A DNA stretch of 32,000 nucleotides. Origin: an uncultured Chloroflexia bacterium. Its GTDB lineage: Bacteria; Chloroflexota; Ktedonobacteria; Ktedonobacterales; JADMIN01. The translations under genes and the position numbers were made by a program. Of this stretch, positions 5,485 to 28,704 are shown piece by piece. The number at the start of each line of letters is the position of its first letter. Within the stretch, counting starts at the first letter, position 1. Under the pieces are notes generated by a model. That model had not been told where the DNA came from, searched no databases, and saw only the letters and a list, made by a program, of their open reading frames with translations. The stretch lies in NCBI GenBank assembly GCA_963718915.1, contig CAVRAI010000004.1, positions 60,001 through 92,000 of the forward strand, given 5' to 3'.

Positions 5485-6716
5485 ACATAGGAAGCCCTAC
5501 AACTGGCTCCTTCGTGCGGATGTGCCAGCGCCTCTGGTTCTGGCTCAGGCACATTTCGACCTTCGAGAAGGTTATTGCTGCCAACAGTTGCATCATTCTG
5601 CTCGATTCGGCGATTGGGTGGTGGGTTACCCAGCACAACCCAGAACCGTATCATTTCCTCATCGATACCGCCTTTATCATCCTCGCGAGCGTCTTCGGAC
5701 TGGCCGTCAATTTTGTGCTGCTGCGCGCGGCATTCGCTCCTCTCCATACCCTGCTGGCCACGATTCGTGTCGTGGCGCGTGGTGATGTGAACGCCCGTGT
5801 GATGGCACAAGAGAGCGGCGCCGATACCGCCGACCTGGCCGATGCCTTCAACATTATGCTCGACCGCTTGGAAGACATGCACCGCGAGGCGGCGGCGCGC
5901 GTACTTCGTGCCCAGGAGGAGGAACGGCGTCGGCTGGCCCTCGAACTCCACGACCAAACTGGCCAGAGCCTCACCGCGCTGGCGCTCCATGCTGCGGCGA
6001 TTGCTCAGCGGCTCGAACACGAGCACAGCGATGCCGCTATACAGGCACGCCAGCAAGCGGAACGCTTAGGGCTGCTGGCCCAGCGAACTCTGACGGAGGT
6101 ACAGGTGCTCTCCCGTCAACTGCGCCCACCACTCTTGGACGATGTTGGCCTAGAGGCTGCGCTCCGCTGGCTGGCCGAGGATGCGAGTGAGCGCTTGAAA
6201 ACACCAGTGACCGTTCGCATTATCCCCGCTGGCGCTCCTGGAAACTTTGACAGCGACCATGCCGCCGAGGAGGAGGTCCCCCTCAATGGCCCGGTCCGCT
6301 GGCCAGAGGATATAGAGACGGCCTTGTTCCGTATCGCCCAGGAAAGTGTGACCAATGCCGTACGTCATGGCCATGCGCAACACATCACCATAGCGCTTTC
6401 CTACACAGCGCCAACCCTGACGCTTCAGGTGAGCGACGACGGATGTGGATTCGATACAACGGCCATCTCTCAGGCAGCGTCAAGCCGCAGCCATGGCGGC
6501 GTTGGCGGCGTTGGCATCGAGGGCATGCAAGAGCGCGCGCAACTCATCGAAGCGCACTTTGCCATCCAATCTCAGCGCGGGCGAGGGTGTATAGTAGTGG
6601 TGAGTGTCCCGCTCACGGCTGGCATGCCAGATGTAGAAACCGAACAGGGGCAAGGACAGGGGCAGCAGACGAGCGCACCAGACAACTCTTCGGCCTCACC
6701 GGCAATGAAGCCATGA
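5481..6716 (+). CDS. NarL-type (HisKA_3) sensor histidine kinase with two TM helices, a minimal external loop and a HAMP-like linker
   Basis: H-box LALELHDQTGQSLTAL. ATPase motifs ESVTNAVRHG, DDGCGF and GVGIEGMQERA. The TM segments VIAANSCIILLDSAIGWWV and FLIDTAFIILASVFGLAVNFVLL are separated by about 8 residues. I chose the start at ATG 5481 (ATGA overlap); ATG 5436 is also open. Confidence 0.85.
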   Translation: MNIGSPTTGSFVRMCQRLWFWLRHISTFEKVIAANSCIILLDSAIGWWVTQHNPEPYHFLIDTAFIILASVFGLAVNFVLLRAAFAPLHTLLATIRVVARGDVNARVMAQESGADTADLADAFNIMLDRLEDMHREAAARVLRAQEEERRRLALELHDQTGQSLTALALHAAAIAQRLEHEHSDAAIQARQQAERLGLLAQRTLTEVQVLSRQLRPPLLDDVGLEAALRWLAEDASERLKTPVTVRIIPAGAPGNFDSDHAAEEEVPLNGPVRWPEDIETALFRIAQESVTNAVRHGHAQHITIALSYTAPTLTLQVSDDGCGFDTTAISQAASSRSHGGVGGVGIEGMQERAQLIEAHFAIQSQRGRGCIVVVSVPLTAGMPDVETEQGQGQGQQTSAPDNSSASPAMKP

Positions 6717-6750
6717 AGAACACATGTTAACAGTATGAAGCGAGCATAGT

Positions 6751-7500
6751 GTGAGCACATTGCTAACCACAACTGACTCCGAATCGCAGCCTGGCGAAGC
6801 AGGCGCTATTCGCATTCTCATTGCCGACGACCACGACATCCTGCGTGATGGTCTGCGCGCCCTGCTGGAGTTGGCAGGCGATATGCAGGTGGTTGGCGAG
6901 GCGCGAACGGGCCGCGAAGCGGTGGCCGAAGCGGAGCGACTGCGCCCTGACATCGTGCTTATGGACATCAGTATGCCTGAACTGGATGGGGTGGAAGCAT
7001 GCCAGCGCATTCGCCAGCAGACGACCGACGTGCAGGTGCTGTTTTTGACGATGCATGAGGCAGAGGAGTACTTCTTTCGAGCATTGCGTGCAGGTGCGGC
7101 AGGCTACGTCATTAAGCGTACAGCAGCGGCCGATCTGTTGGCGGCTGTCCGTGCGGTGGCGCATGGTGAGTCCTTCCTCTCGCCGAGCATCGCACGCGCA
7201 CTGGTCGAGGATTACACACGTCAGCAATCTCGTCAGCAATCGCGGATGTCACAATCAGGGTTAGCGCGGGATGGCGCTGAGCAATTCGACAATTATGACG
7301 CGCTGTCCGGTCGTGAGCGTGAGGTGTTGCAATTGGTCGGCGAGGGACATACCAACCAGGAGATCGCGAATATGCTGCATCTCAGCATCAAGACCGTGCA
7401 GTCACATCGCGCATCGGTTATGGAGAAGCTTGGGTTGCGCGACGTTACGCACCTAGTGCGTTATGCAGTACGACGTGGGCTAGTGAACCCTGAGCAATAG
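6751..7500 (+). CDS. NarL/FixJ-family response regulator (REC + LuxR-type HTH)
   Basis: REC motifs ILIADDHDILRDGL and DIVLMDISMPELDG. C-terminal HTH LSGREREVLQLVGEGHTNQEIANMLHLSIKTVQSHRASVMEKLG. GTG start. Confidence 0.9.
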   Translation: MSTLLTTTDSESQPGEAGAIRILIADDHDILRDGLRALLELAGDMQVVGEARTGREAVAEAERLRPDIVLMDISMPELDGVEACQRIRQQTTDVQVLFLTMHEAEEYFFRALRAGAAGYVIKRTAAADLLAAVRAVAHGESFLSPSIARALVEDYTRQQSRQQSRMSQSGLARDGAEQFDNYDALSGREREVLQLVGEGHTNQEIANMLHLSIKTVQSHRASVMEKLGLRDVTHLVRYAVRRGLVNPEQ

Positions 7501-7518
7501 GTTTCTTCCGCGAAGCTG

Positions 7519-8625
7519 CTACGATGCTGTCAGAACTGACTGCCAGTGTCGTCCTCCATCAGTAGTAAGATCAAGCCCCAGTGGGTACGAGAACCCGACA
7601 TAAGCGATGTTGGCGTCTTCAGGATCAACAGCGACCTGGCTAGGATGCCCGCTCAGCGGAGCTGTTGCTCGCCAGCTCTTTCCACCATCAAGCGTTCGCT
7701 CCACCCCTGTTCCGGTCAAGCCGTAACCCTCGGTAGGGGCTACAGCGCAAAACTCGATGCTTGAAAAATTGACCGTCGGATTGACCAAGTGGAAGAGTGT
7801 TCCGGTCGTATCGGACGCAAATAGTCCCGAATCGCTTTGGACATAGATCAGTTTGTCGGCAAACGTGAGCCCATACACACCACCTTGCACACTGGAGACA
7901 GGGTTCCAGCTTCCTCCGTGGTCAGTACTTTGATACAGCCCACTCGCTGGACTCCAGATAAGCAGATGATCGGGATGTGCAGGGTCATCGGCCACGCCTG
8001 TAACGTCGCTGGTAGGCAATGGTGGCTGTGCCTTCCAGTGCGCGCCTGCGTCGTCGCTCGCGGAAAGGCCGTGAGTCGCCAGTGCTGGCAGGAATGCATA
8101 CACATCACTCGCTGTACCTGCCCCGACAGCGATTGTATATACGCTCCGGGTCGAAGATGAGGTAAAGGGGGTCGCAAGTTGCCAGGTTTGTCCCGCATCT
8201 GCACTCCTATACAATCCAGGCGCTGCTGGCGGAGGAACGCTGGAACGGAGCGTCGCCAGGGCATAAATGCGTTTTGGATCCAATGGACTTTGCGCTAGCT
8301 TGAAGATCATCAGGCCATCCATCGCCTGGCCAGGACCGCCCGCAACCTGACGCCAGGTCTGTCCGCGATCCGTCGTACGGTAGAGTCCCAAATGTGTCGC
8401 AAGCAACACCGTCCCAGCGATTCCATGGAGTGGCAACAAATCATGGAGGTGATTCAGTGAGCCGCCATATGCTGGACTCGCCGACGTTGATCCATTCGCG
8501 CATCCAGCCATTGCAACCATTGCAACCATCGGCAATAAAGCGCACAAGGCGAGGACGAACAGAGCCGTACGAAAGACTATTCCCGAGCGGCGTCTCGCAC
8601 TCCATTGTCGCATTGGAAATGTCAT
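7519..8625 (-). CDS. secreted lipoprotein, BNR/Asp-box repeat beta-propeller
   Basis: Signal peptide ending in lipobox-like AMAGC. Six Asp-box-like repeats: TDRGQTW, SADAGQTW, SDDAGAHW, STDHGGSW, TLDGGKSW, TTDGGRHW. GGAGGAGG precedes the ATG. The start overlaps the upstream stop (ATGA at 8622-8625). Confidence 0.8.
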   Translation of the reverse strand: MTFPMRQWSARRRSGIVFRTALFVLALCALLPMVAMVAMAGCANGSTSASPAYGGSLNHLHDLLPLHGIAGTVLLATHLGLYRTTDRGQTWRQVAGGPGQAMDGLMIFKLAQSPLDPKRIYALATLRSSVPPPAAPGLYRSADAGQTWQLATPFTSSSTRSVYTIAVGAGTASDVYAFLPALATHGLSASDDAGAHWKAQPPLPTSDVTGVADDPAHPDHLLIWSPASGLYQSTDHGGSWNPVSSVQGGVYGLTFADKLIYVQSDSGLFASDTTGTLFHLVNPTVNFSSIEFCAVAPTEGYGLTGTGVERTLDGGKSWRATAPLSGHPSQVAVDPEDANIAYVGFSYPLGLDLTTDGGRHWQSVLTAS

Positions 8626-9875
8626 GAGAGCCTCCTCCTATGAGCGCGAAGGGATTCACGAATTGCCAGAAATAGGAGAGTGCCGAAAACCACGATGAAG
8701 GCGCCAAGAATGAGCGCTACGACAATGACGGTGGTCTGGCGATCAAGCGGAGGTGGATATGGACCCGTAACGATTGCACGTGGTTCGCCCCCGACGGCCA
8801 CGGCGCCAAGAGTCTGGCGGTTTGTGATATCAAGCTCTACCACGCGCCCATCGGCACGTTCGGCGACGAATCCCAAAGCCCCCTCAAATGTGATCGCGAC
8901 TGCCGATGGCTCACCGGAGAATCTTAGGATATGTAGCGGCTCTGCCGGAGCCACCAGACTTCCATTTCCTCCTACCCCGCTGGGTCTTAGGATCACTACC
9001 CGGTTCTTCGTAGGAACTGGTATGTAGATTTGACCGGTGATGGCATCATAATCCATCGTCCCCGGTGTCCCACCCAGGTCTGACAGCACTGTGCCGAGTA
9101 CCTCGTGCGATGCCAGTCCGACCGCAAGTACTGCTCCCTGGCAGGTCGCTACATAGGCGATGCCGCCTGTTGACGGAATGTTGATCGCGCATGGCGGTGC
9201 AGGCAGCGCAATTGTAGCCAACGTGCGCAGATCGCGCGTCGCAATGACCGAGACTGTTTGGCTCTGGCGATTAGCGACGTAGACCTCAAGTGTAGATGGA
9301 TCGCTGATTCCGCTATTTGAGGCGGCCACAGCAACGCTGACTGGTGCATTGCCAACTGTCAATGTCGCTTTCACTCGTTGGGTATCTGAGTCGAGAATAG
9401 TGAGGGTATTTCCGGCGGTATCGGCAACGAACAGCCAGTGCAAACTGCCTGATGGATCCACTGCTATTGCCTGCGGACTAGAACCAGTCGGCATACTCCC
9501 AACCACGCTATGCTCGCGCGTGTCAACGATGGCAACCCGGTTAGCGTCTGCCTCGGTGACATAGGCAAAGCGGCCATCGCTGCTTAAGACAACCGCTTGT
9601 GGCCGATTTCCTAGGGCGAGAGTCCACGCCACATTCCGTTTCCCAATATCCATGACAGTGAGATTGTCACTTGAGCTTCCTCCGCCCACGATATAGGCGA
9701 GGTTTGGAGCGCCACCGTCAGCTCTCGCTGGCATAGCCCCACCGTACCACCAGATAGTCAGAGTTAGAACTAAGGCGAATAGCGTTGCGAATCCTATATG
9801 TCTTCGTCGAATTTGGCCAAACGATGTGTTTATTCTCAGCTTTCGTACGTGTCTCCGTCGCGGGTGAAGTCTCAT
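8622..9875 (-). CDS. YVTN-type (YncE-like) beta-propeller repeat protein with N-terminal signal/anchor and C-terminal TM helix
   Basis: Repeats of the form AYVTEADANRVAIVDTREHSVVGSMPTGSSPQAIAVDP, LFVADTAGNTLTILDSDTQRV and VYVANRQSQTVSVIATRDLRT. C-terminal helix VIVVALILGAFIVVFGTLLFLAI. Confidence 0.8.
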   Translation of the reverse strand: MRLHPRRRHVRKLRINTSFGQIRRRHIGFATLFALVLTLTIWWYGGAMPARADGGAPNLAYIVGGGSSSDNLTVMDIGKRNVAWTLALGNRPQAVVLSSDGRFAYVTEADANRVAIVDTREHSVVGSMPTGSSPQAIAVDPSGSLHWLFVADTAGNTLTILDSDTQRVKATLTVGNAPVSVAVAASNSGISDPSTLEVYVANRQSQTVSVIATRDLRTLATIALPAPPCAINIPSTGGIAYVATCQGAVLAVGLASHEVLGTVLSDLGGTPGTMDYDAITGQIYIPVPTKNRVVILRPSGVGGNGSLVAPAEPLHILRFSGEPSAVAITFEGALGFVAERADGRVVELDITNRQTLGAVAVGGEPRAIVTGPYPPPLDRQTTVIVVALILGAFIVVFGTLLFLAIRESLRAHRRRLS

Positions 9876-20839: not shown

Positions 20840-21709
20840 TCAGGCAAGCCCCTGCGCGGTCCGTTTGGCCAGCGAATACTGGGCGAAGCCACCACCCAGC
20901 GCGCCATAGACCAGCGCCAACGCGCCCATTATCAGGAAGATCGCCGCGAAGAGGAGCGCGGGCGCTATGAGACAGCCGATACTCCGCAAGAAGCTTTGCC
21001 AGCCGTGCCAAATCGGAATCCATCCCCAGTACAATGACCATGCGCCGTAGATTGCTACAGGAACGAGCAGGAGAAGCCCTGTTGGCGCTGCGCCTGTCAC
21101 GTAGGTTCCTGTGACATCGTTAAGCTGCTGGGTAGGTGTGAAGGCTTTCACGATGAGACTAATTGCGATCCAGCCGCCAATTACAGCGGTAAATATCCAG
21201 CTCCACATAATGAGCCGTTGCGCATGCGCTGGTGTCCGACGTGACGCATGGCTCGGCTGCTGACTTTTAGGGAGCACGGTCGCAGTGGTAGGCATTGGTT
21301 GTGGCGTCGCCGGTTGCGGTTGTGACGCCACGGTCGGCCGCGGAGCAGGTGTCATGATCGGAGTGGATGTTGCGGTCTCCTTGCTCGTTGGTCTGTCCGT
21401 AATGACATCTGTCATGTCAGCGCCAAACGTTACGGCCCCATCGAAGAACACCTGGCTGATATTTGCGCCATGCAGAATTGCACCGCTCAATGTCGCCTGA
21501 GAAAAGTTGCAGCGTGTGAGATCAGCCCCGCTCAGGTTTGCCCCTTTCAGGTTAGCGCGAAAGAAGTTCGCGTCTTTGAGCGTCGCGTTCCGCAGATCAG
21601 CGCCAGCGAGATCCCAGTGGGCAAACATCCGCTGGCCATCGGCGTATGCGGCAAGCAGTTCGGTAGCCGTACGCTGTTGATTGCGCGAAGAATCTAGTTG
21701 CTGCGTCAT
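20840..21709 (-). CDS. pentapeptide-repeat protein with Pro/Thr-rich linker and C-terminal multi-TM domain
   Basis: Pentapeptide run DLAGADLRNATLKDANFFRANLKGANLSGADLTRCNFSQATLSGAILHGANISQ. Then a PT-rich linker and 3-4 hydrophobic helices. GGAGGA precedes the ATG. Confidence 0.85.
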   Translation of the reverse strand: MTQQLDSSRNQQRTATELLAAYADGQRMFAHWDLAGADLRNATLKDANFFRANLKGANLSGADLTRCNFSQATLSGAILHGANISQVFFDGAVTFGADMTDVITDRPTSKETATSTPIMTPAPRPTVASQPQPATPQPMPTTATVLPKSQQPSHASRRTPAHAQRLIMWSWIFTAVIGGWIAISLIVKAFTPTQQLNDVTGTYVTGAAPTGLLLLVPVAIYGAWSLYWGWIPIWHGWQSFLRSIGCLIAPALLFAAIFLIMGALALVYGALGGGFAQYSLAKRTAQGLA

Positions 21710-22026: not shown

Positions 22027-22554
22027 ATGAAGGTTATTTTGTTACAGGAAGTCCCCGGACTGGGCAAGCCGGGTGATGTGAAGGAAGTTGCCAACGGCTA
22101 CGCGCGCAACTACCTGTTGCCGCAGCACATGGTGACGGCGGCGACGCCCGGCGAGCTGGCGAATCTGCAGCAGCGCGTGGTGGCGGCTCAGCGGCGCACG
22201 GAGAAGCAGCGCCAGGAGCACGACTCGCTGGCGACGAAACTGGCGGCGGTGACGCTGACCTTCGCGGTGCGCGTCGGGCGGGGCGACCGCCTCTATGGCT
22301 CGGTGACCAGCCAGGATATCGCCAACGCGCTCGAAGAGCAGGAACACCTGACTGTTGATCGCCGGACGATTCAACTGCGCGATCCGCTGCGCACGTTGGG
22401 CACGTTCGAGGTGCCGGTGCGTATTGCGGCAAAGGTCGAGCCGAAGGTGAAGGTGACGCTCGTCGCCAATCAGGAGCTTCCCGCAGCCGAGCAGGAAGAG
22501 TCTGCCGTCACCGAAGCCACCGAGGATGAGGAAGCTGTCTCCGAGGAGGAGTAG
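22027..22554 (+). CDS. rplI: 50S ribosomal protein L9
   Basis: N-terminus MKVILLQEVPGLGKPGDVKEVANGYARNYLLPQ is the canonical L9 signature. Acidic C-terminal tail. The ORF-track extension back to 21838 is rejected. Confidence 0.95.
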   Translation: MKVILLQEVPGLGKPGDVKEVANGYARNYLLPQHMVTAATPGELANLQQRVVAAQRRTEKQRQEHDSLATKLAAVTLTFAVRVGRGDRLYGSVTSQDIANALEEQEHLTVDRRTIQLRDPLRTLGTFEVPVRIAAKVEPKVKVTLVANQELPAAEQEESAVTEATEDEEAVSEEE

Positions 22555-22574
22555 ACTATCTCTGGATCAACCAG

Positions 22575-22615
22575 CGCCCCCGCATTCTGTGCCGAGAGCC
22601 AGAACAGCGGGGGCG
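22575..22615 (+). terminator. probable terminator hairpin after rplI
   Basis: cgcccccgc (22575-22583) pairs with gcgggggcg (22607-22615), and ttctg (22585-22589) pairs with cagaa (22600-22604), with a 10-nt loop. It is followed by aggcgaTTTTcc and starts 21 nt after the rplI stop. Confidence 0.5.
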
Positions 22616-22670
22616 AGGCGATTTTCCCGTGGGTGGGTGAGCGGTTCAAACCACGCCTGAATGGCCTCAC

Positions 22671-22895
22671 TTGCTTCGGTTCGCGAATCTTATAGCGGCG
22701 ATAGGAACCGGGGCGATAGGTTTTGTCGCGCAATGCATCGCGCAGGCGTAGTAGCTCATCTTCGAGACAGTACTCAAAGGTGGCGACATCGGGGCGACTG
22801 CGCTTGCCGCGAGCGGCGCGACGATAGGCAAAGAGCAGATTCTCGAAGGAGCAGAGGCGCTCATAGAGGGAGGGAGTTTCAGGGACATCAGCCAT
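22671..22895 (-). pseudogene. N-terminal 75-codon remnant of a DGR-type reverse transcriptase
   Basis: MADVPETPSLYERLCSFENLLFAYRRAARGKRSRPDVATFEYCLEDELLRLRDALRDKTYRPGSYRRYKIREPKQ follows the N-terminal pattern of DGR RTs (..WENL..AY....GKR......F......L..L...L....Y.P..Y..F.I.EPK.R.I). Similarity stops at EPKQ, before any RT palm motif, and none of the three frames continues it. Own RBS (GGGAGGA) and ATG are intact. Confidence 0.7.
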
Positions 22896-22947
22896 AGGAC
22901 ATCCTCCCACTCGCACGGGATTCCAAACTACCCCTCCGGCGCCTCAC

Positions 22948-22981
22948 AAAAAATTCGCGAATTTTCCGCGCTACGCGCGGA
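22948..22981 (-). terminator. tandem-hairpin terminator downstream of the TIR-TPR-FGE gene
   Basis: On the minus strand: GC hairpin tccgcgc-gta-gcgcgga (22965-22981), then the AT palindrome aaaattcgcgaatttt running into a T-tract (22948-22965). Confidence 0.5.
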
Positions 22982-23074
22982 CAGAGCCAGAGACCCGCAC
23001 GAACATTGCCGCGTTCATTGCATTGATAGTGTAATTCAGTGGATTGAGAAAGCAAGAACCGGAATTAATCACTA

Positions 23075-25192
23075 CTATGAACCAGCCGGGGCGACAACGA
23101 GACGGAAACCAATGTTGTAGTTGAGGCCGACCGGCCTGAAGTTGTCGCGATAGGCCGCGCGCGCGACCTGCTGGATGTTGACCCACGAACCGCCACGCAG
23201 TACTCGATTCTCAGTAGAATTTGCCACCTCCCGGCCATCATTCCCAGTGTAGGGATAGGGCTTGTAGAGGCTGTGAACCCACTCCCAGACGTTGCCCGCC
23301 ATGTCTTCTGCTCCACATGGGCTGGCCCCATTGGGGTAGCTGCCCACTGCCGTCGTAGTTCGTTTGCCACTTTCGTTGGTATTCGCCCGCGACTGGTCGA
23401 ACGTGTCACCCCAGGGATAGAGACGCGCGACGCCCGCACGCTGGTCCCATCGCGCCGCTTTCTCCCACTCCGCCTCGGTCGGCAGTCGCCAGGGCTGTCC
23501 CGTCGTCCGCGCCAGCCAGGCGGCATAGGCGACGGCGTCATCCCACGAAACGTATGTGACGGGATGATCGAGCTTTTGCATCTGGTTGGCCCATTGCTGT
23601 GGCTGGTTGTGCTTTGCGGCCTCGACGAAGCAGGCGTACTCGGCCACCGTCACCGGGAAGCGCGCGATAGAGAAGGCGGCGACCATGATGCGTGATTGCG
23701 GTTGCTCGTTGGCCTGCGCCTGATTGTCACGGCGCGGGTCGCTGCCCATCAGGAACTCGCCCGCGGGCACGGCGCAGACCGGCGGGTTGATGAACTTGAC
23801 ACCGTTCCGCGCCTGAGCGATGAAGCCCAGTTCTGCCAATCGCGCTGAGAAGCGGTCAGGCTTGAGGATCACCAGCAACTCCTGCCGCGCCTGGGTGACG
23901 GCGGCATCATTTGGCGCCAACCGTGTGGCGGCATCGAGGGCAGTGCGCACCTCGTCGGTGGGGTTCTCGCCCGCCAGTTTCCACGCCAGCCGTGCGCGCG
24001 TGAGCCAGAGCGGGGCGGTGGCCTCGGGGCGGGCGGTCAGCGCACGGGCCATCTCCAGCGCCTCAGCGTCGCGTCCCAGCCCGCCAAGCGCCTCCAGCTT
24101 GATTGCCTGCCAGCCCGCGTCGCTCGCGCCCGCCAGGCTCAGCCCCTCGTTGGCCACGCGCAGCAGCGTCGTCCAGTGGGTCTGGGCGCTCGCTCCACTT
24201 TCAGCGCGCGCGACCTCACGCAGCACGCTGGCGTCGATGCGCAGCAGCGCCAGCCGTTGGGCGCGGTCGTTTGTCAGGGTGAGCGCGTCGTCGAGCAGCG
24301 GGAGGGCAGCGGCCTTCTCGCCCAGCGCGATACGGGCATCGGCGGCGGCTCGCAGCGCGGTCACATCGAGCGGGTCGCGTTGCCGCACGGTATCCCAGGC
24401 GGCTTTGGCTCCGGCATAGTCGCGTTCGGCCATCAGCGCCCGTCCCTGCATCGCGTAGACCTCGTTGGGCAGCCGCTCGGCGGGGACGCTACGCTGGATG
24501 AAGGCGGCCAGCCGCGCTACCTGCGGCCAGTCCTGCGCATTGAAGGCATCGCGCAGCTGCGGCAGGAAGCGTGCCAGCAGGTCGCTGACAGGATCGGCTG
24601 GTGTGGCGGGTGGTGTCGTCGGCGGTGTGGGAGCCGGTGCGGGAGGCGCATCGCCGATCCAGCTGGCGATGTGAGCCGTCAGGCGCGCAATGTCGTGGTC
24701 GAAATCGGGATGGCGCCGGATTGGGGTGGCATTGCGATTGGTCAGCTCACGCAGACTCGCGGGCAACCCGTCCGCGTCGGGCATGCGCGCCCCCTGCACC
24801 AGCAACGGAATGAGCAGCAGGCCACTGGCAGGCTCACCCGCCGCATTCACCGGGGCCAGCGCCAGCGCCTGTTCCACCTCAATGCGCACATGATCGGACG
24901 GATCGTTGAGACGGGCCTGTCCAGCATACCGCCCCGATGGCTCGACGACGGTTGGCCACGAGGGGCCAAGCACGATCAGCGCGACACGGCACTGGCGCAG
25001 CACATAATCAACGTATCCCGGAAAGCTGTAGCCCGGCGGAATCCCATCCACATCCATAAAAATGGCCTCGCGACCAAAGCGGTCTTTGAGACGGTCGTAG
25101 ATATGGTCAACGGTCGCCTGGCTATCCTCGCGGCGGTAGGAGATGAAAATCTTGTACGGACTGGGTTGGCCGGGTTGGCTGCCTGCGTTCAT
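23075..25192 (-). CDS. TIR domain - TPR-like repeats - C-terminal FGE-sulfatase/C-type-lectin-fold domain protein
   Basis: 705 aa. N-terminal TIR pattern [39 protein letters not shown]...ALIVLGPSW...[25 protein letters not shown] linker. Ala/Leu-rich TPR-like helices. C-terminal FGE-family motifs [53 protein letters not shown] and RVLRGGSW...NIGFRLVV. There is no Cys pair after GGSW where catalytic FGEs carry one. Confidence 0.9.
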
Positions 25193-25535: not shown

Positions 25536-26667
25536 CTACGGCAGCAGCAGATGCAGGTCGCCGAACTCGTGCCAGAGATAGCGCTCGTGTAGCGCCTCGC
25601 GATAGGCCGCGCTCACATGCGCCCGTCCGGCGATGGCTTCGAGCATGGCGAGATGGCTGGCGCGCGGCTCGTGCAGTCCGGTGAGCAGCCCCTGCACCGC
25701 GCGCACGCCACGTTCCGGTGTGATGATCAGCGGCGTCCACCCCTCGCCGGGATGGGTCGCGCCTTCCTCATCGGTCACGGTCTCCAGCGCGCGCACGACG
25801 GTCGTGCCGACGGCCACCACGCGCCGATGGGCGGCATGAGCCGCGTTGACCGCATGCGCCGTCGCCAGCGGTACCCGGTAATACTCTTCGTAGGGCGGCT
25901 CGTGGTCTTCGAGGCTGGAGACGCCAGTATGCAGCAACAGCGGCGCGATCTGGACGCCGCGCGCGATCAGGCGCGTTAGCAGTTCCGGGGTGAACGCGCG
26001 CCCTGCCGAGGGCATCTCCGCGCTGCCCATCTCGGTCGCATACACCGTCTGGTAATATTCGCCGGGCCAGCGTCGTGGCACATAGCTATAGCGGATGGGG
26101 AAGCCGTATTGCGCGAGGTAGTCGTTCAGCGGGCAGGGCAGCGCGAGCGTCGCCAGCCAGAGCCGCACGCCGCCTATCTATTGGGAGCGATGCGCGGTCG
26201 GTGGCATAGGGCGCCAGCAGCGTCGCCGTCGCGCCCGCGGGCAGGCTGATGACCTCGCCCGCGCGTCCGTCGCGGAAGGGCAGCGTCCCGTTTGGGCCGG
26301 GGAGTCGTAGCTCCAGCGTCCAGATGTCGCCGGGCAGATGCGTCGAGAGATGAACCTCCAGCGGTGACTCGTCGGCGCGGGTGGCGTCGAGCGCCGCGTT
26401 GAGGGCGCCACTGGTGTTGATGACCAGCAGGTCGCCCGGTTCGAGCGCCTCCACAATCGCGGCAAAACGATGGTGGCTGACGAGCGGCTCCGCCCCGCGC
26501 GAAACCATCAGCCGCACGCCGTCGCGTCCCAGCCCGCGCGCCTCTGGCGGCTCGTGCGCCTCCAACTCTGGAGGCAGCGTGAAGTCGAGCGGCTCGAGCT
26601 CCTCGAATGGTCCGCCTCGCGGCTCGTCGCGCGATGACGCAATCAAGGTCAGATGTTTCGTCGTCAT
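25536..26667 (-). pseudogene. queA: S-adenosylmethionine:tRNA ribosyltransferase-isomerase (QueA)-like gene, frameshifted by a 4-bp tandem duplication
   Basis: The N-terminal ORF (LDFTLPPELEAHEPPEARGLGRDGVRLMVS..., LLVINTSG) and the C-terminal ORF (RLWLATL...YQTVYA...GSAEMPSAGRAFT...LLLHTGVSS...AVGTTVVRALE) match QueA order. The 1132-nt span minus 4 nt gives 1128 nt (3 x 376). The junction reads ctc cca ATAG ATAG gc ggc gtg on the coding strand (plus-strand ctatctat at 26174-26181). Confidence 0.8.
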
Positions 26668-28470: not shown

Positions 28471-28528
28471 GCGCGGGCGGTTAAAACCGCGCCTTCATGG
28501 CCTGCGGCCACAAAACCCGCCTGCGCGG
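28471..28528 (+). repeat. REP-like GC-rich imperfect-palindrome element, copy 1
   Basis: gcgcgggcggttaaaaccgcgccttcatggcctgcggccacaaaacccgcctgcgcgg. The termini gcgcgggcgg and ccgcctgcgc are mutually complementary (9/10). It lies between convergent genes. Confidence 0.6.
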
Positions 28529-28636: not shown

Positions 28637-28704
28637 CCGCGCAGGCGGACTTCGTGGCCGCAGTGAAGCGGAGGCCCTTAAGGCGCGGTTTCAACCGCCC
28701 GCGC
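28637..28704 (-). repeat. REP-like element, copy 2 (inverted relative to copy 1)
   Basis: The reverse complement, gcgcgggcggttgaaaccgcgccttaagggcctccgcttcactgcggccacgaagtccgcctgcgcgg, aligns to copy 1. The first 24 nt match 23/24 and the last 12 match 12/12. There is a 10-nt insertion and a few central mismatches. Confidence 0.6.

Follow-up and report, generated by a model that had tools for sequence, protein, structure and literature searches.

An intact TIR-TPR-lectin gene beside a truncated reverse transcriptase: a probable degenerate diversity-generating retroelement in a Ktedonobacterales-like genome

Is a gene for a TIR-domain protein that ends in a C-type-lectin fold, followed on the same strand by the first codons of a reverse transcriptase (RT), the remainder of a diversity-generating retroelement (DGR), and is its C-terminus still being rewritten? 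The question is raised by positions 22671-25192 of a 32,000-nt stretch of contig CAVRAI010000004.1 (assembly GCA_963718915.1, positions 60,001 to 92,000) from an uncultured Chloroflexota bacterium, the whole stretch being referred to below as the window. The initial annotation of the window had described a 705-aa protein with TIR, TPR and FGE-sulfatase parts whose last codons were rich in NNC, and a DGR-type RT cut short downstream of it. The analysis presented here indicates that the locus is very probably a degenerate DGR in which an intact TIR-TPR-lectin target gene and an RT stump were left behind by an ancestral cassette with the order target, carrying the variable region (VR), spacer, RT, Avd and template repeat (TR). 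The evidence was roughly even on whether the window copy is now a frozen relic or is still served in trans, with a slight leaning on our part towards trans service that is recent or continuing. Coordinates of all features are collected in Table 1.

The C-terminus of the target was evaluated against its homologues. High conservation in the family extends as far as an invariant RGGSW and resumes at GFRL, and the 24 residues in between are scrambled. Mean column entropy was 2.27 bits in residues 671-694 versus 1.02 bits elsewhere in the domain (p=2e-7), making this the only hypervariable patch across the Ktedonobacterales homologues, and almost all residues that occupy it in the family can be encoded by NNC codons. 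In the window gene such codons account for 16 of 23 in the VR and for 260 of the 666 outside it (Fisher p=0.0035), which bears out the richness initially reported. The reservation that had been attached to it, that a high GC content at third positions would produce the same richness, did not hold: all 12 of the family-hypervariable codons are NNC in the window, the joint probability of which, given the per-residue codon usage of ten genes in the window, was 1.7e-4. The window VR was also in codon-for-codon register with genuine TRs of related cassettes, and its variable codons aligned to mostly AAC-type, A-rich TR codons (e.g. in L009 and L087).

Comparison with the closest relative, L120, which is 80% identical to the window protein in the FGE domain, added a pattern at silent sites. 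Among codons for the same residue, third-position identity was 62% upstream and rose to 86% in those VR codons that are constant (p=0.014). In the variable codons, positions 1 and 2 are scrambled while a third base C was kept in 13 of 14, and amino-acid identity was 29%. Rewriting templated by a conserved TR leaves such a pattern, and ordinary fast evolution does not. Hypervariability, NNC codons locked at a third-position C (C3-locked), TR register and the silent-site pattern together support the last ~40 codons as a DGR variable region, as had been suspected, and the codon and silent-site signatures are specific to templated A-mutagenesis.

The second line of evidence is the RT stub itself. 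It opens with an ATG at 22895-22893, with the ribosome-binding site GGGAGGA (22902-22908) located 7 nt upstream. The best PDB match was the Bordetella phage DGR RT 8ub7 (residues 7-72, E=1.2e-5) and the next RT match, a group II intron/retron-type enzyme, followed at E=0.64. PHROGs returned phrog_1423 'Reverse transcriptase' at 2e-19, and the stub was 47-63% identical to aligned RT N-termini, including those of the bona fide DGR RTs of L016, L009 and L025. NCBIfam gave a weak group II RT match (0.15), PADLOC gave weak generic RT and UG19 matches, and Pfam gave no match for the 148-aa open reading frame (ORF) to which the stub belongs. The predicted identity of the stub is, on these matches, the N-terminus of a DGR-type RT rather than of a retron or group II enzyme. 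Similarity to RTs disappears after ...REPKQ, codon 75 (the Q of EPKQ) ending at 22671, and the frame continues through unrelated sequence to 22470; ~115 nt after 22671 it reaches the terminator hairpin of rplI (CGCCCCCGC...GCGGGGGCG, z=-2.4) and then runs antisense into rplI. The 75-residue match, its start signals, its abrupt end and the run into the rplI terminator region thereby stand as first described. No RT catalytic motif, YxDD included, was found after the stub and no further RT homology was found in the window; nor was a transposon or miniature inverted-repeat transposable element (MITE) seen at the truncation junction.

What such a locus looks like when complete was read from relatives, represented by 124 fetched loci that include distant FGE loci among the matches listed by a contig scan with generic FGE peptide patterns. 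Among these loci, complete cassettes with RTs that rank among the closest to the stub are L016, L009, L025, L087, L094, L095, L105 and L106. In each the FGE target with its VR comes first, followed by about 70-210 nt of spacer, RT, Avd and TR, the TR being located 1.7-1.9 kb downstream of the VR. Of the mismatches between TR and VR, 14 of 16 in L016 and 24 of 27 in L009 coincide with an adenine of the TR. The order target, TR, RT that was assumed initially is therefore not the order of these cassettes, and a TR is accordingly not expected in the target-RT spacer of the window; the truncation that removed most of the RT explains why the TR is missing. As previously reported, no repeat of the VR was found within the 32-kb window (blastn at word size 7 and repeat finding), and tblastn with the proteins of a full-length relative returned no second RT, Avd or FGE gene there. 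With the catalytic part of the RT, Avd and the TR all absent from it, the window contains a degenerate cassette-type locus and not a functional cis-complete DGR.

One of the complete cassettes, L087, is composed of a TIR-FGE gene, RT, bAvd and TR and shares its ENA assembly (ERZ25039457) with the family member P0006. The 3' flank of the window VR, the spacer and its hairpin are homologous to those of L087. In particular, the box at 23043-23087 is nearly identical in that cassette, which makes it a candidate initiation of mutagenic homing (IMH) sequence or target-recognition flank. Ahead of the RT start, the GC hairpin of the spacer recurs in L087 and L099 and, with its loop flipped, in L092. 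Fold energies of the spacer hairpins were not significantly better than those of shuffled sequences, and support for them comes from conservation; of the terminator placed between target and RT by the initial annotation, a conserved terminator-like element stands. The spacer length of 180 nt given there was nearly right, the exact value being 179 nt. Frameshifts were observed in L087 at 6436-9700, in the TIR-FGE, RT and Avd genes, and in L004 at 2372-2493, in the VR of P0006; both contigs belong to ERZ25039457, and the frameshifts represent either assembly indels or genuine decay. A different hairpin motif, (G)GATTAGCCGCAGG-N6-7-CCTGCGGC, was observed ~130-150 nt downstream of the target stop codon in the remote targets L001, L005, L089 and L119, and is unlike the cassette-type CCGCGC-GTA-GCGCGG hairpin.

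The 705-aa frame of the target was confirmed, as was its three-part composition. Profile searches, a check that the initial annotation had itself proposed, placed Pfam TIR_2 (residues 15-138, 8.9e-9; 36.3 bits versus a Pfam cut-off of 28) and FGE-sulfatase (1.8e-55) above cut-off and TPR_16 in the middle region below threshold. The middle region was identified as a TPR solenoid from the AlphaFold model, which is helical with a pLDDT of about 90-96 over residues 200-440, and from Foldseek, in which the top matches were consensus TPR superhelices at a probability of 1.0; no NTPase domain was found in the target protein. The AlphaFold model of the full protein used a 12-sequence alignment, and the TIR domain was modelled with a pLDDT of 70-88. 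A weak PADLOC match of the TIR to a ThsB-like profile was obtained (9e-7), and the ThcB4 profile reached 25.8 bits versus a cut-off of 220. V102 and E105 of the TIR are invariant in the family alignment. E105 is found within S-D-H-V-R-I-E, at the S-x-(W/H)-x-x-x-E position, and is by this placement the putative catalytic Glu; alignments to solved TIR structures end before the motif.

Sequence matches of the FGE domain in the PDB were to FGE, EgtB and TvpA (2y3c, 6e-5). Cysteines occur in the 705-aa protein at residues 68, 473, 521 and 626 only, leaving the C-terminal 79 residues Cys-free. The active-site pair of human FGE, C336/C341, is located in the segment after GGS. As no Cys follows residue 626 the catalytic pair is absent, as initially noted, and the segment that would carry it is the VR; the domain is hence predicted not to be a catalytic FGE. 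The maximum Kyte-Doolittle 19-mer score of the protein was 1.35 and no signal peptide or transmembrane segment was found, and the target appears to be a cytoplasmic, stand-alone, single-chain protein. Its 90% cluster contains its own sequence and one N-terminal fragment. Homologues are TIR-(TPR)-FGE proteins, several of them labelled Ktedonobacterales in their source, and the closest full-length ones are 57-69% identical.

A sequence of events that would produce this locus can be proposed. In the ancestral cassette, composed of target with VR, hairpin spacer, RT, Avd and TR, an error-prone RT would have copied TR RNA with misincorporation at template adenines, and the cDNA would have taken the place of the target's last ~40 codons. 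Some 12-14 AAC-type codons would thereby have been randomised, on that face of the catalytically dead FGE/C-type-lectin domain which binds the ligand. A deletion or rearrangement would then have taken the RT codons from ~76 on, the Avd gene and the TR together, and the remainder would be the intact target gene, the 3' recognition flank and the 75-codon RT stump against rplI. At the protein level, the hypervariable lectin tip may bind a cytoplasmic ligand of non-self origin, the TPR solenoid could couple binding to oligomerisation or mediate autoinhibition, and clustered TIR domains might consume NAD+ or make a signal, giving rise to an abortive-infection-type defence. Ligand sensing and TIR output are suggested here by analogy to known DGR variable proteins and bacterial TIR effectors.

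Several results weigh against this reading as a whole. No cognate TR was found in the window, in the 124 fetched loci or in pattern scans of metagenome and viral contigs, in which IUPAC patterns for the predicted 'NNN-QQ-N-ARAA' TR/VR gave 0 matches; among 27 RT loci obtained from a metagenome scan seeded with the 75-aa stub, no TR cognate to the window VR was found either. The closest relatives of the window module, L120-L123 (Logan, four SRA runs; e.g. L120 4899-7361), contain a TIR-TPR-FGE gene split into two ORFs followed by an 84-aa RT stump ending ...ISAAPYRDR, and their VR is identical in 4/4 runs, making the module look frozen and decaying. The catalytic Glu of the TIR and the sensor function would be assigned from motifs only. 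The FGE/C-type-lectin domain was poorly modelled by AlphaFold, with a pLDDT below 50, and the assignment of its fold rests on sequence evidence. Finally, at least one apparent frameshift in the window, in queA, renders the quality of the assembly uncertain. Indel errors are however unable to produce a truncation of ~275 codons, and doubt about the assembly does not explain the loss of the RT.

Given a degenerate DGR, the present state of the VR has to be weighed. The chance is close to even, if slightly under it, that the cis cassette is dead, that no trans donor exists and that the VR is now a fixed C-terminus, with one specificity kept or pseudogenisation under way. The truncated RT and the absence of Avd and TR from the 32 kb point in this direction, as do L120-L123, in which the same module has an invariant VR and a broken target gene. 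Their context differs from that of the window, with ABC transporters and APH upstream and Fer2 and xanthine dehydrogenase downstream, and is syntenic with L004. RT stumps are common in this lineage, further ones being found in P0084, P0086, P0067, L092, L088 and as a second copy in L009. Those next to or near FGE targets in L009 (8693-9000), L092 (5292-5650) and L088 (1905-2327) break at ~codons 100-120. Past the break, the sequence in L009 has no relation to RTs, and in L092 an unrelated ORF begins ~40 nt past the stump. A clustering of stump breaks at codons 75-95 was discarded as uninterpretable, since the searches had been seeded with the N-terminal 75 residues and are subject to ascertainment bias. 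A relic of this kind is at odds with the fully intact reading frame of the target, with the lack of third-position drift in the 12 hypervariable codons and with the elevated silent-site conservation of the VR.

These same features, the 705-codon frame that is intact although the RT is destroyed, variable codons that are every one still C3-locked and VR silent sites better conserved than the rest in the comparison with L120, argue for recent rewriting, possibly after divergence from L120. They would be expected if the stump were debris and the VR were rewritten in trans by an intact RT, Avd and TR elsewhere in the genome, as part of a multi-paralogue repertoire served by few master DGRs. We consider this a serious possibility that nonetheless falls short of even. 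Trans diversification does occur in the TIR-TPR-FGE family. L119 (292-2292) and L089 (322-2322) are the same RT-less TIR-TPR-FGE locus, L119 and L089-L091 having been obtained from sibling samples, and the two differ at 30 of 2401 nt. Of these differences 23 are located within a VR of 97 nt and affect codon positions 1 or 2 without exception, leaving only 7 over the other ~2300 nt. As the changes are concentrated in the VR and no RT is nearby, RT-less copies of the family are rewritten in trans. The homologues P0001, P0004, P0006 and P0071, as well as P0079, are likewise found in unrelated neighbourhoods without an RT, and degenerate loci served in trans are documented (PMC10907252). Set against trans service of the window copy are the lack of a matching TR in the fetched loci and in the metagenome and viral scans, and the apparently frozen state of its nearest relative module, L120-L123. 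The TR of L087, the sole TR of a TIR-FGE cassette in hand, was rejected as donor for the window VR, as only 15 of the 33 mismatches fall at A.

A more far-reaching form of this proposal, which we regard as unlikely, is that the window gene is a live, trans-hypermutated member of a large TIR-TPR-lectin receptor repertoire in mycelial Ktedonobacteria, in which a few master DGRs would act on remote copies and the target 3' flank, hairpin spacer and RT 5' stump would be retained as cis signals for remote homing. A module composed of these three parts was observed in the window, in L120-123 and in L092, and if the proposal were true it would specify the features a locus needs in order to serve as a competent remote DGR target.

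It is very improbable that no DGR remnant is present, the C-terminus being no more than a loop that evolves fast in an enzyme of the FGE family and the short ORF either a chance frame or part of an RT from a retron or group II intron, an explanation to which the silence of Pfam and the weak NCBIfam and PADLOC matches of the ORF would lend themselves but which is countered by 8ub7 as top structural-database match, by the identity of the stub to RT N-termini of which several come from cassettes with Avd and an A-mutated TR/VR pair, by the homology of the spacer to that of the full L087 cassette and by the VR signatures of templated A-mutagenesis.

The degenerate DGR thus favoured has precedents. 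Doré et al. 2024, PNAS (PMC10907252) describe DGR-diversified putative antigen sensors associated with RT 'clade 5', targets with TIR and C-type-lectin (CLec) domains among them, as well as 'degenerate' loci that lack RT or TR and are diversified in trans, and report an enrichment in multicellular bacteria, filamentous Chloroflexi included. Kaur, Burroughs, Iyer and Aravind 2020, eLife (PMC7159879) found FGS (FGE-sulfatase-like) domains to be always C-terminal to variable effector domains, TIR included, with a hypervariable C-terminal VR and a DGR TR that is either close by or at another site of the genome. DGR targets that combine TIR with CLec, loci that are degenerate and diversification in trans are accordingly already known (PMC10907252, PMC7159879) and the present locus is a further example. 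No paper describing DGRs in the Ktedonobacterales lineage was found in a literature search.

The window protein resembles the sensors of Doré et al. (PMC10907252) in its C-terminal CLec/FGE domain with a VR and its N-terminal TIR (PF13676), in its host from a multicellular or filamentous lineage (Chloroflexota, Ktedonobacterales-like) with several paralogous targets per genome, and in the degenerate loci whose RT or TR is missing or pseudogenised, trans diversification and variable positions at codon positions 1 and 2. It differs from them in that TIR is joined to CLec by a TPR solenoid and both a STAND/NACHT NTPase and a vWA-MoxR ternary partner are lacking, in that no transposon or MITE marks the junction in the window, and in that only 75 RT residues remain for comparison with the clade. 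Similarly, the FGE domain is C-terminal to a TIR and has its VR at the hypervariable C-terminus, as in the FGS systems of Kaur et al. (PMC7159879), whereas the MoxR, vWA, VMAP and iSTAND neighbours of their NTP-dependent conflict systems were not found near the target gene within the window.

Among classical DGRs, the stub aligns to bRT (8ub7) of the BPP-1 system (Mtd/bRT/Avd/TR), and the VR makes up the final ~40 codons of a CLec fold, with AAC-type codons and a GC hairpin downstream, as in BPP-1 and in TvpA of Treponema denticola. In contrast to the order mtd(VR)-avd-TR-brt of BPP-1, close relatives of the window locus have the order VR-RT-Avd-TR, and the window RT is a 75-codon stump; the BPP-1 and TvpA targets are a phage tail fibre or surface lipoprotein, whereas the window target is predicted to be cytoplasmic and is fused to a TIR. 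With ThsB-type TIRs of Thoeris and with SAVED/STING-TIR NADases the protein shares a TIR_2 domain, weak ThsB-like matches and a conserved Glu at the motif position. Its profile scores are however far below the family cut-offs, no ThsA or other partner was found, and its presumed trigger is a fused hypervariable lectin where theirs is a separate sensor.

The locus extends the current picture of DGR-diversified sensors and does not change it. It provides a clean Ktedonobacterales example for the view that sensors hypermutated by DGRs and fused to effectors of death or immunity are maintained by multicellular bacteria, and its minimal TIR-TPR-CLec architecture without an NTPase is a simple candidate for direct triggering of a TIR by ligand binding to a hypervariable lectin. 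The recurring modules of target and RT stump show the decay of DGR cassettes into remote targets, and the L119/L089 metagenomic pair is direct evidence that RT-less copies of the family are rewritten in trans.

Table 1. Features of the target and RT stub module and of its surroundings in the window, listed in minus-strand order.
Feature	Position	Strand	Remarks
queA	25536-26667	-	first gene of the interval in minus-strand order
Gap between queA and the 705-aa ORF			343 nt
Target gene (705-aa ORF)	23075-25192	-	frame intact; TIR/TPR/FGE-type C-type-lectin protein
TIR domain	24653-25156	-	~residues 13-180; insertion after strand C
TPR-like alpha-solenoid linker	23873-24595	-	~residues 200-440
FGE-sulfatase/C-type-lectin-fold domain	23096-23776	-	residues 473-699; PF03781, 1.8e-55
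VR	23078-23203	-	limits from homology to the TR/VR pair of cassette L087
Hypervariable core of VR	23111-23182	-	residues 671-694
Conserved box	23043-23087	-	GGCTGGTTCATAGTAGTGATTAATTCCGGTTCTTGCTTTCTCAAT; VR 3' end, stop codon and first 32 nt of spacer
Spacer from target to RT stub	22896-23074		179 nt
GC hairpin	22966-22980	-	CCGCGC-GTA-GCGCGG; homologous to the L087 hairpin
Terminator-like element	22946-22981	-	GC hairpin, small AT-rich hairpin, T-run
RT stub	22671-22895	-	codons 1-75 of a predicted DGR-type RT
Junction where RT homology ends	22555-22670		contains the rplI terminator hairpin; abuts rplI
rplI	22027-22554	+	convergent with target and stub; closes the interval

The immediate neighbours of the module are queA and rplI. 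The former encodes S-adenosylmethionine:tRNA ribosyltransferase-isomerase and was observed as two overlapping ORFs with Pfam Queuosine_synth matches at positions 3-104 and 125-322. The split indicates a frameshift near 26086-26168 and hence a pseudogene or a long-read indel error. Just past rplI, at 20840-21709 on the minus strand, lies the gene of a 289-aa protein that begins with pentapeptide repeats (7e-20) and is hydrophobic in its C-terminal half; no connection was seen between it and the DGR locus. Elsewhere in the window an inverted repeat is located at 28471-28506 and 28669-28704, its arms being 89% complementary and 162 nt apart. The arm GCGGGCGGTTGAAACCGCGCCTTAAGGGCCTCCG closely resembles the sequence directly 3' of the stop codon in the remote targets L119 and L089, and the repeat looks like a repetitive extragenic palindromic (REP)- or MITE-like element common to these genomes.

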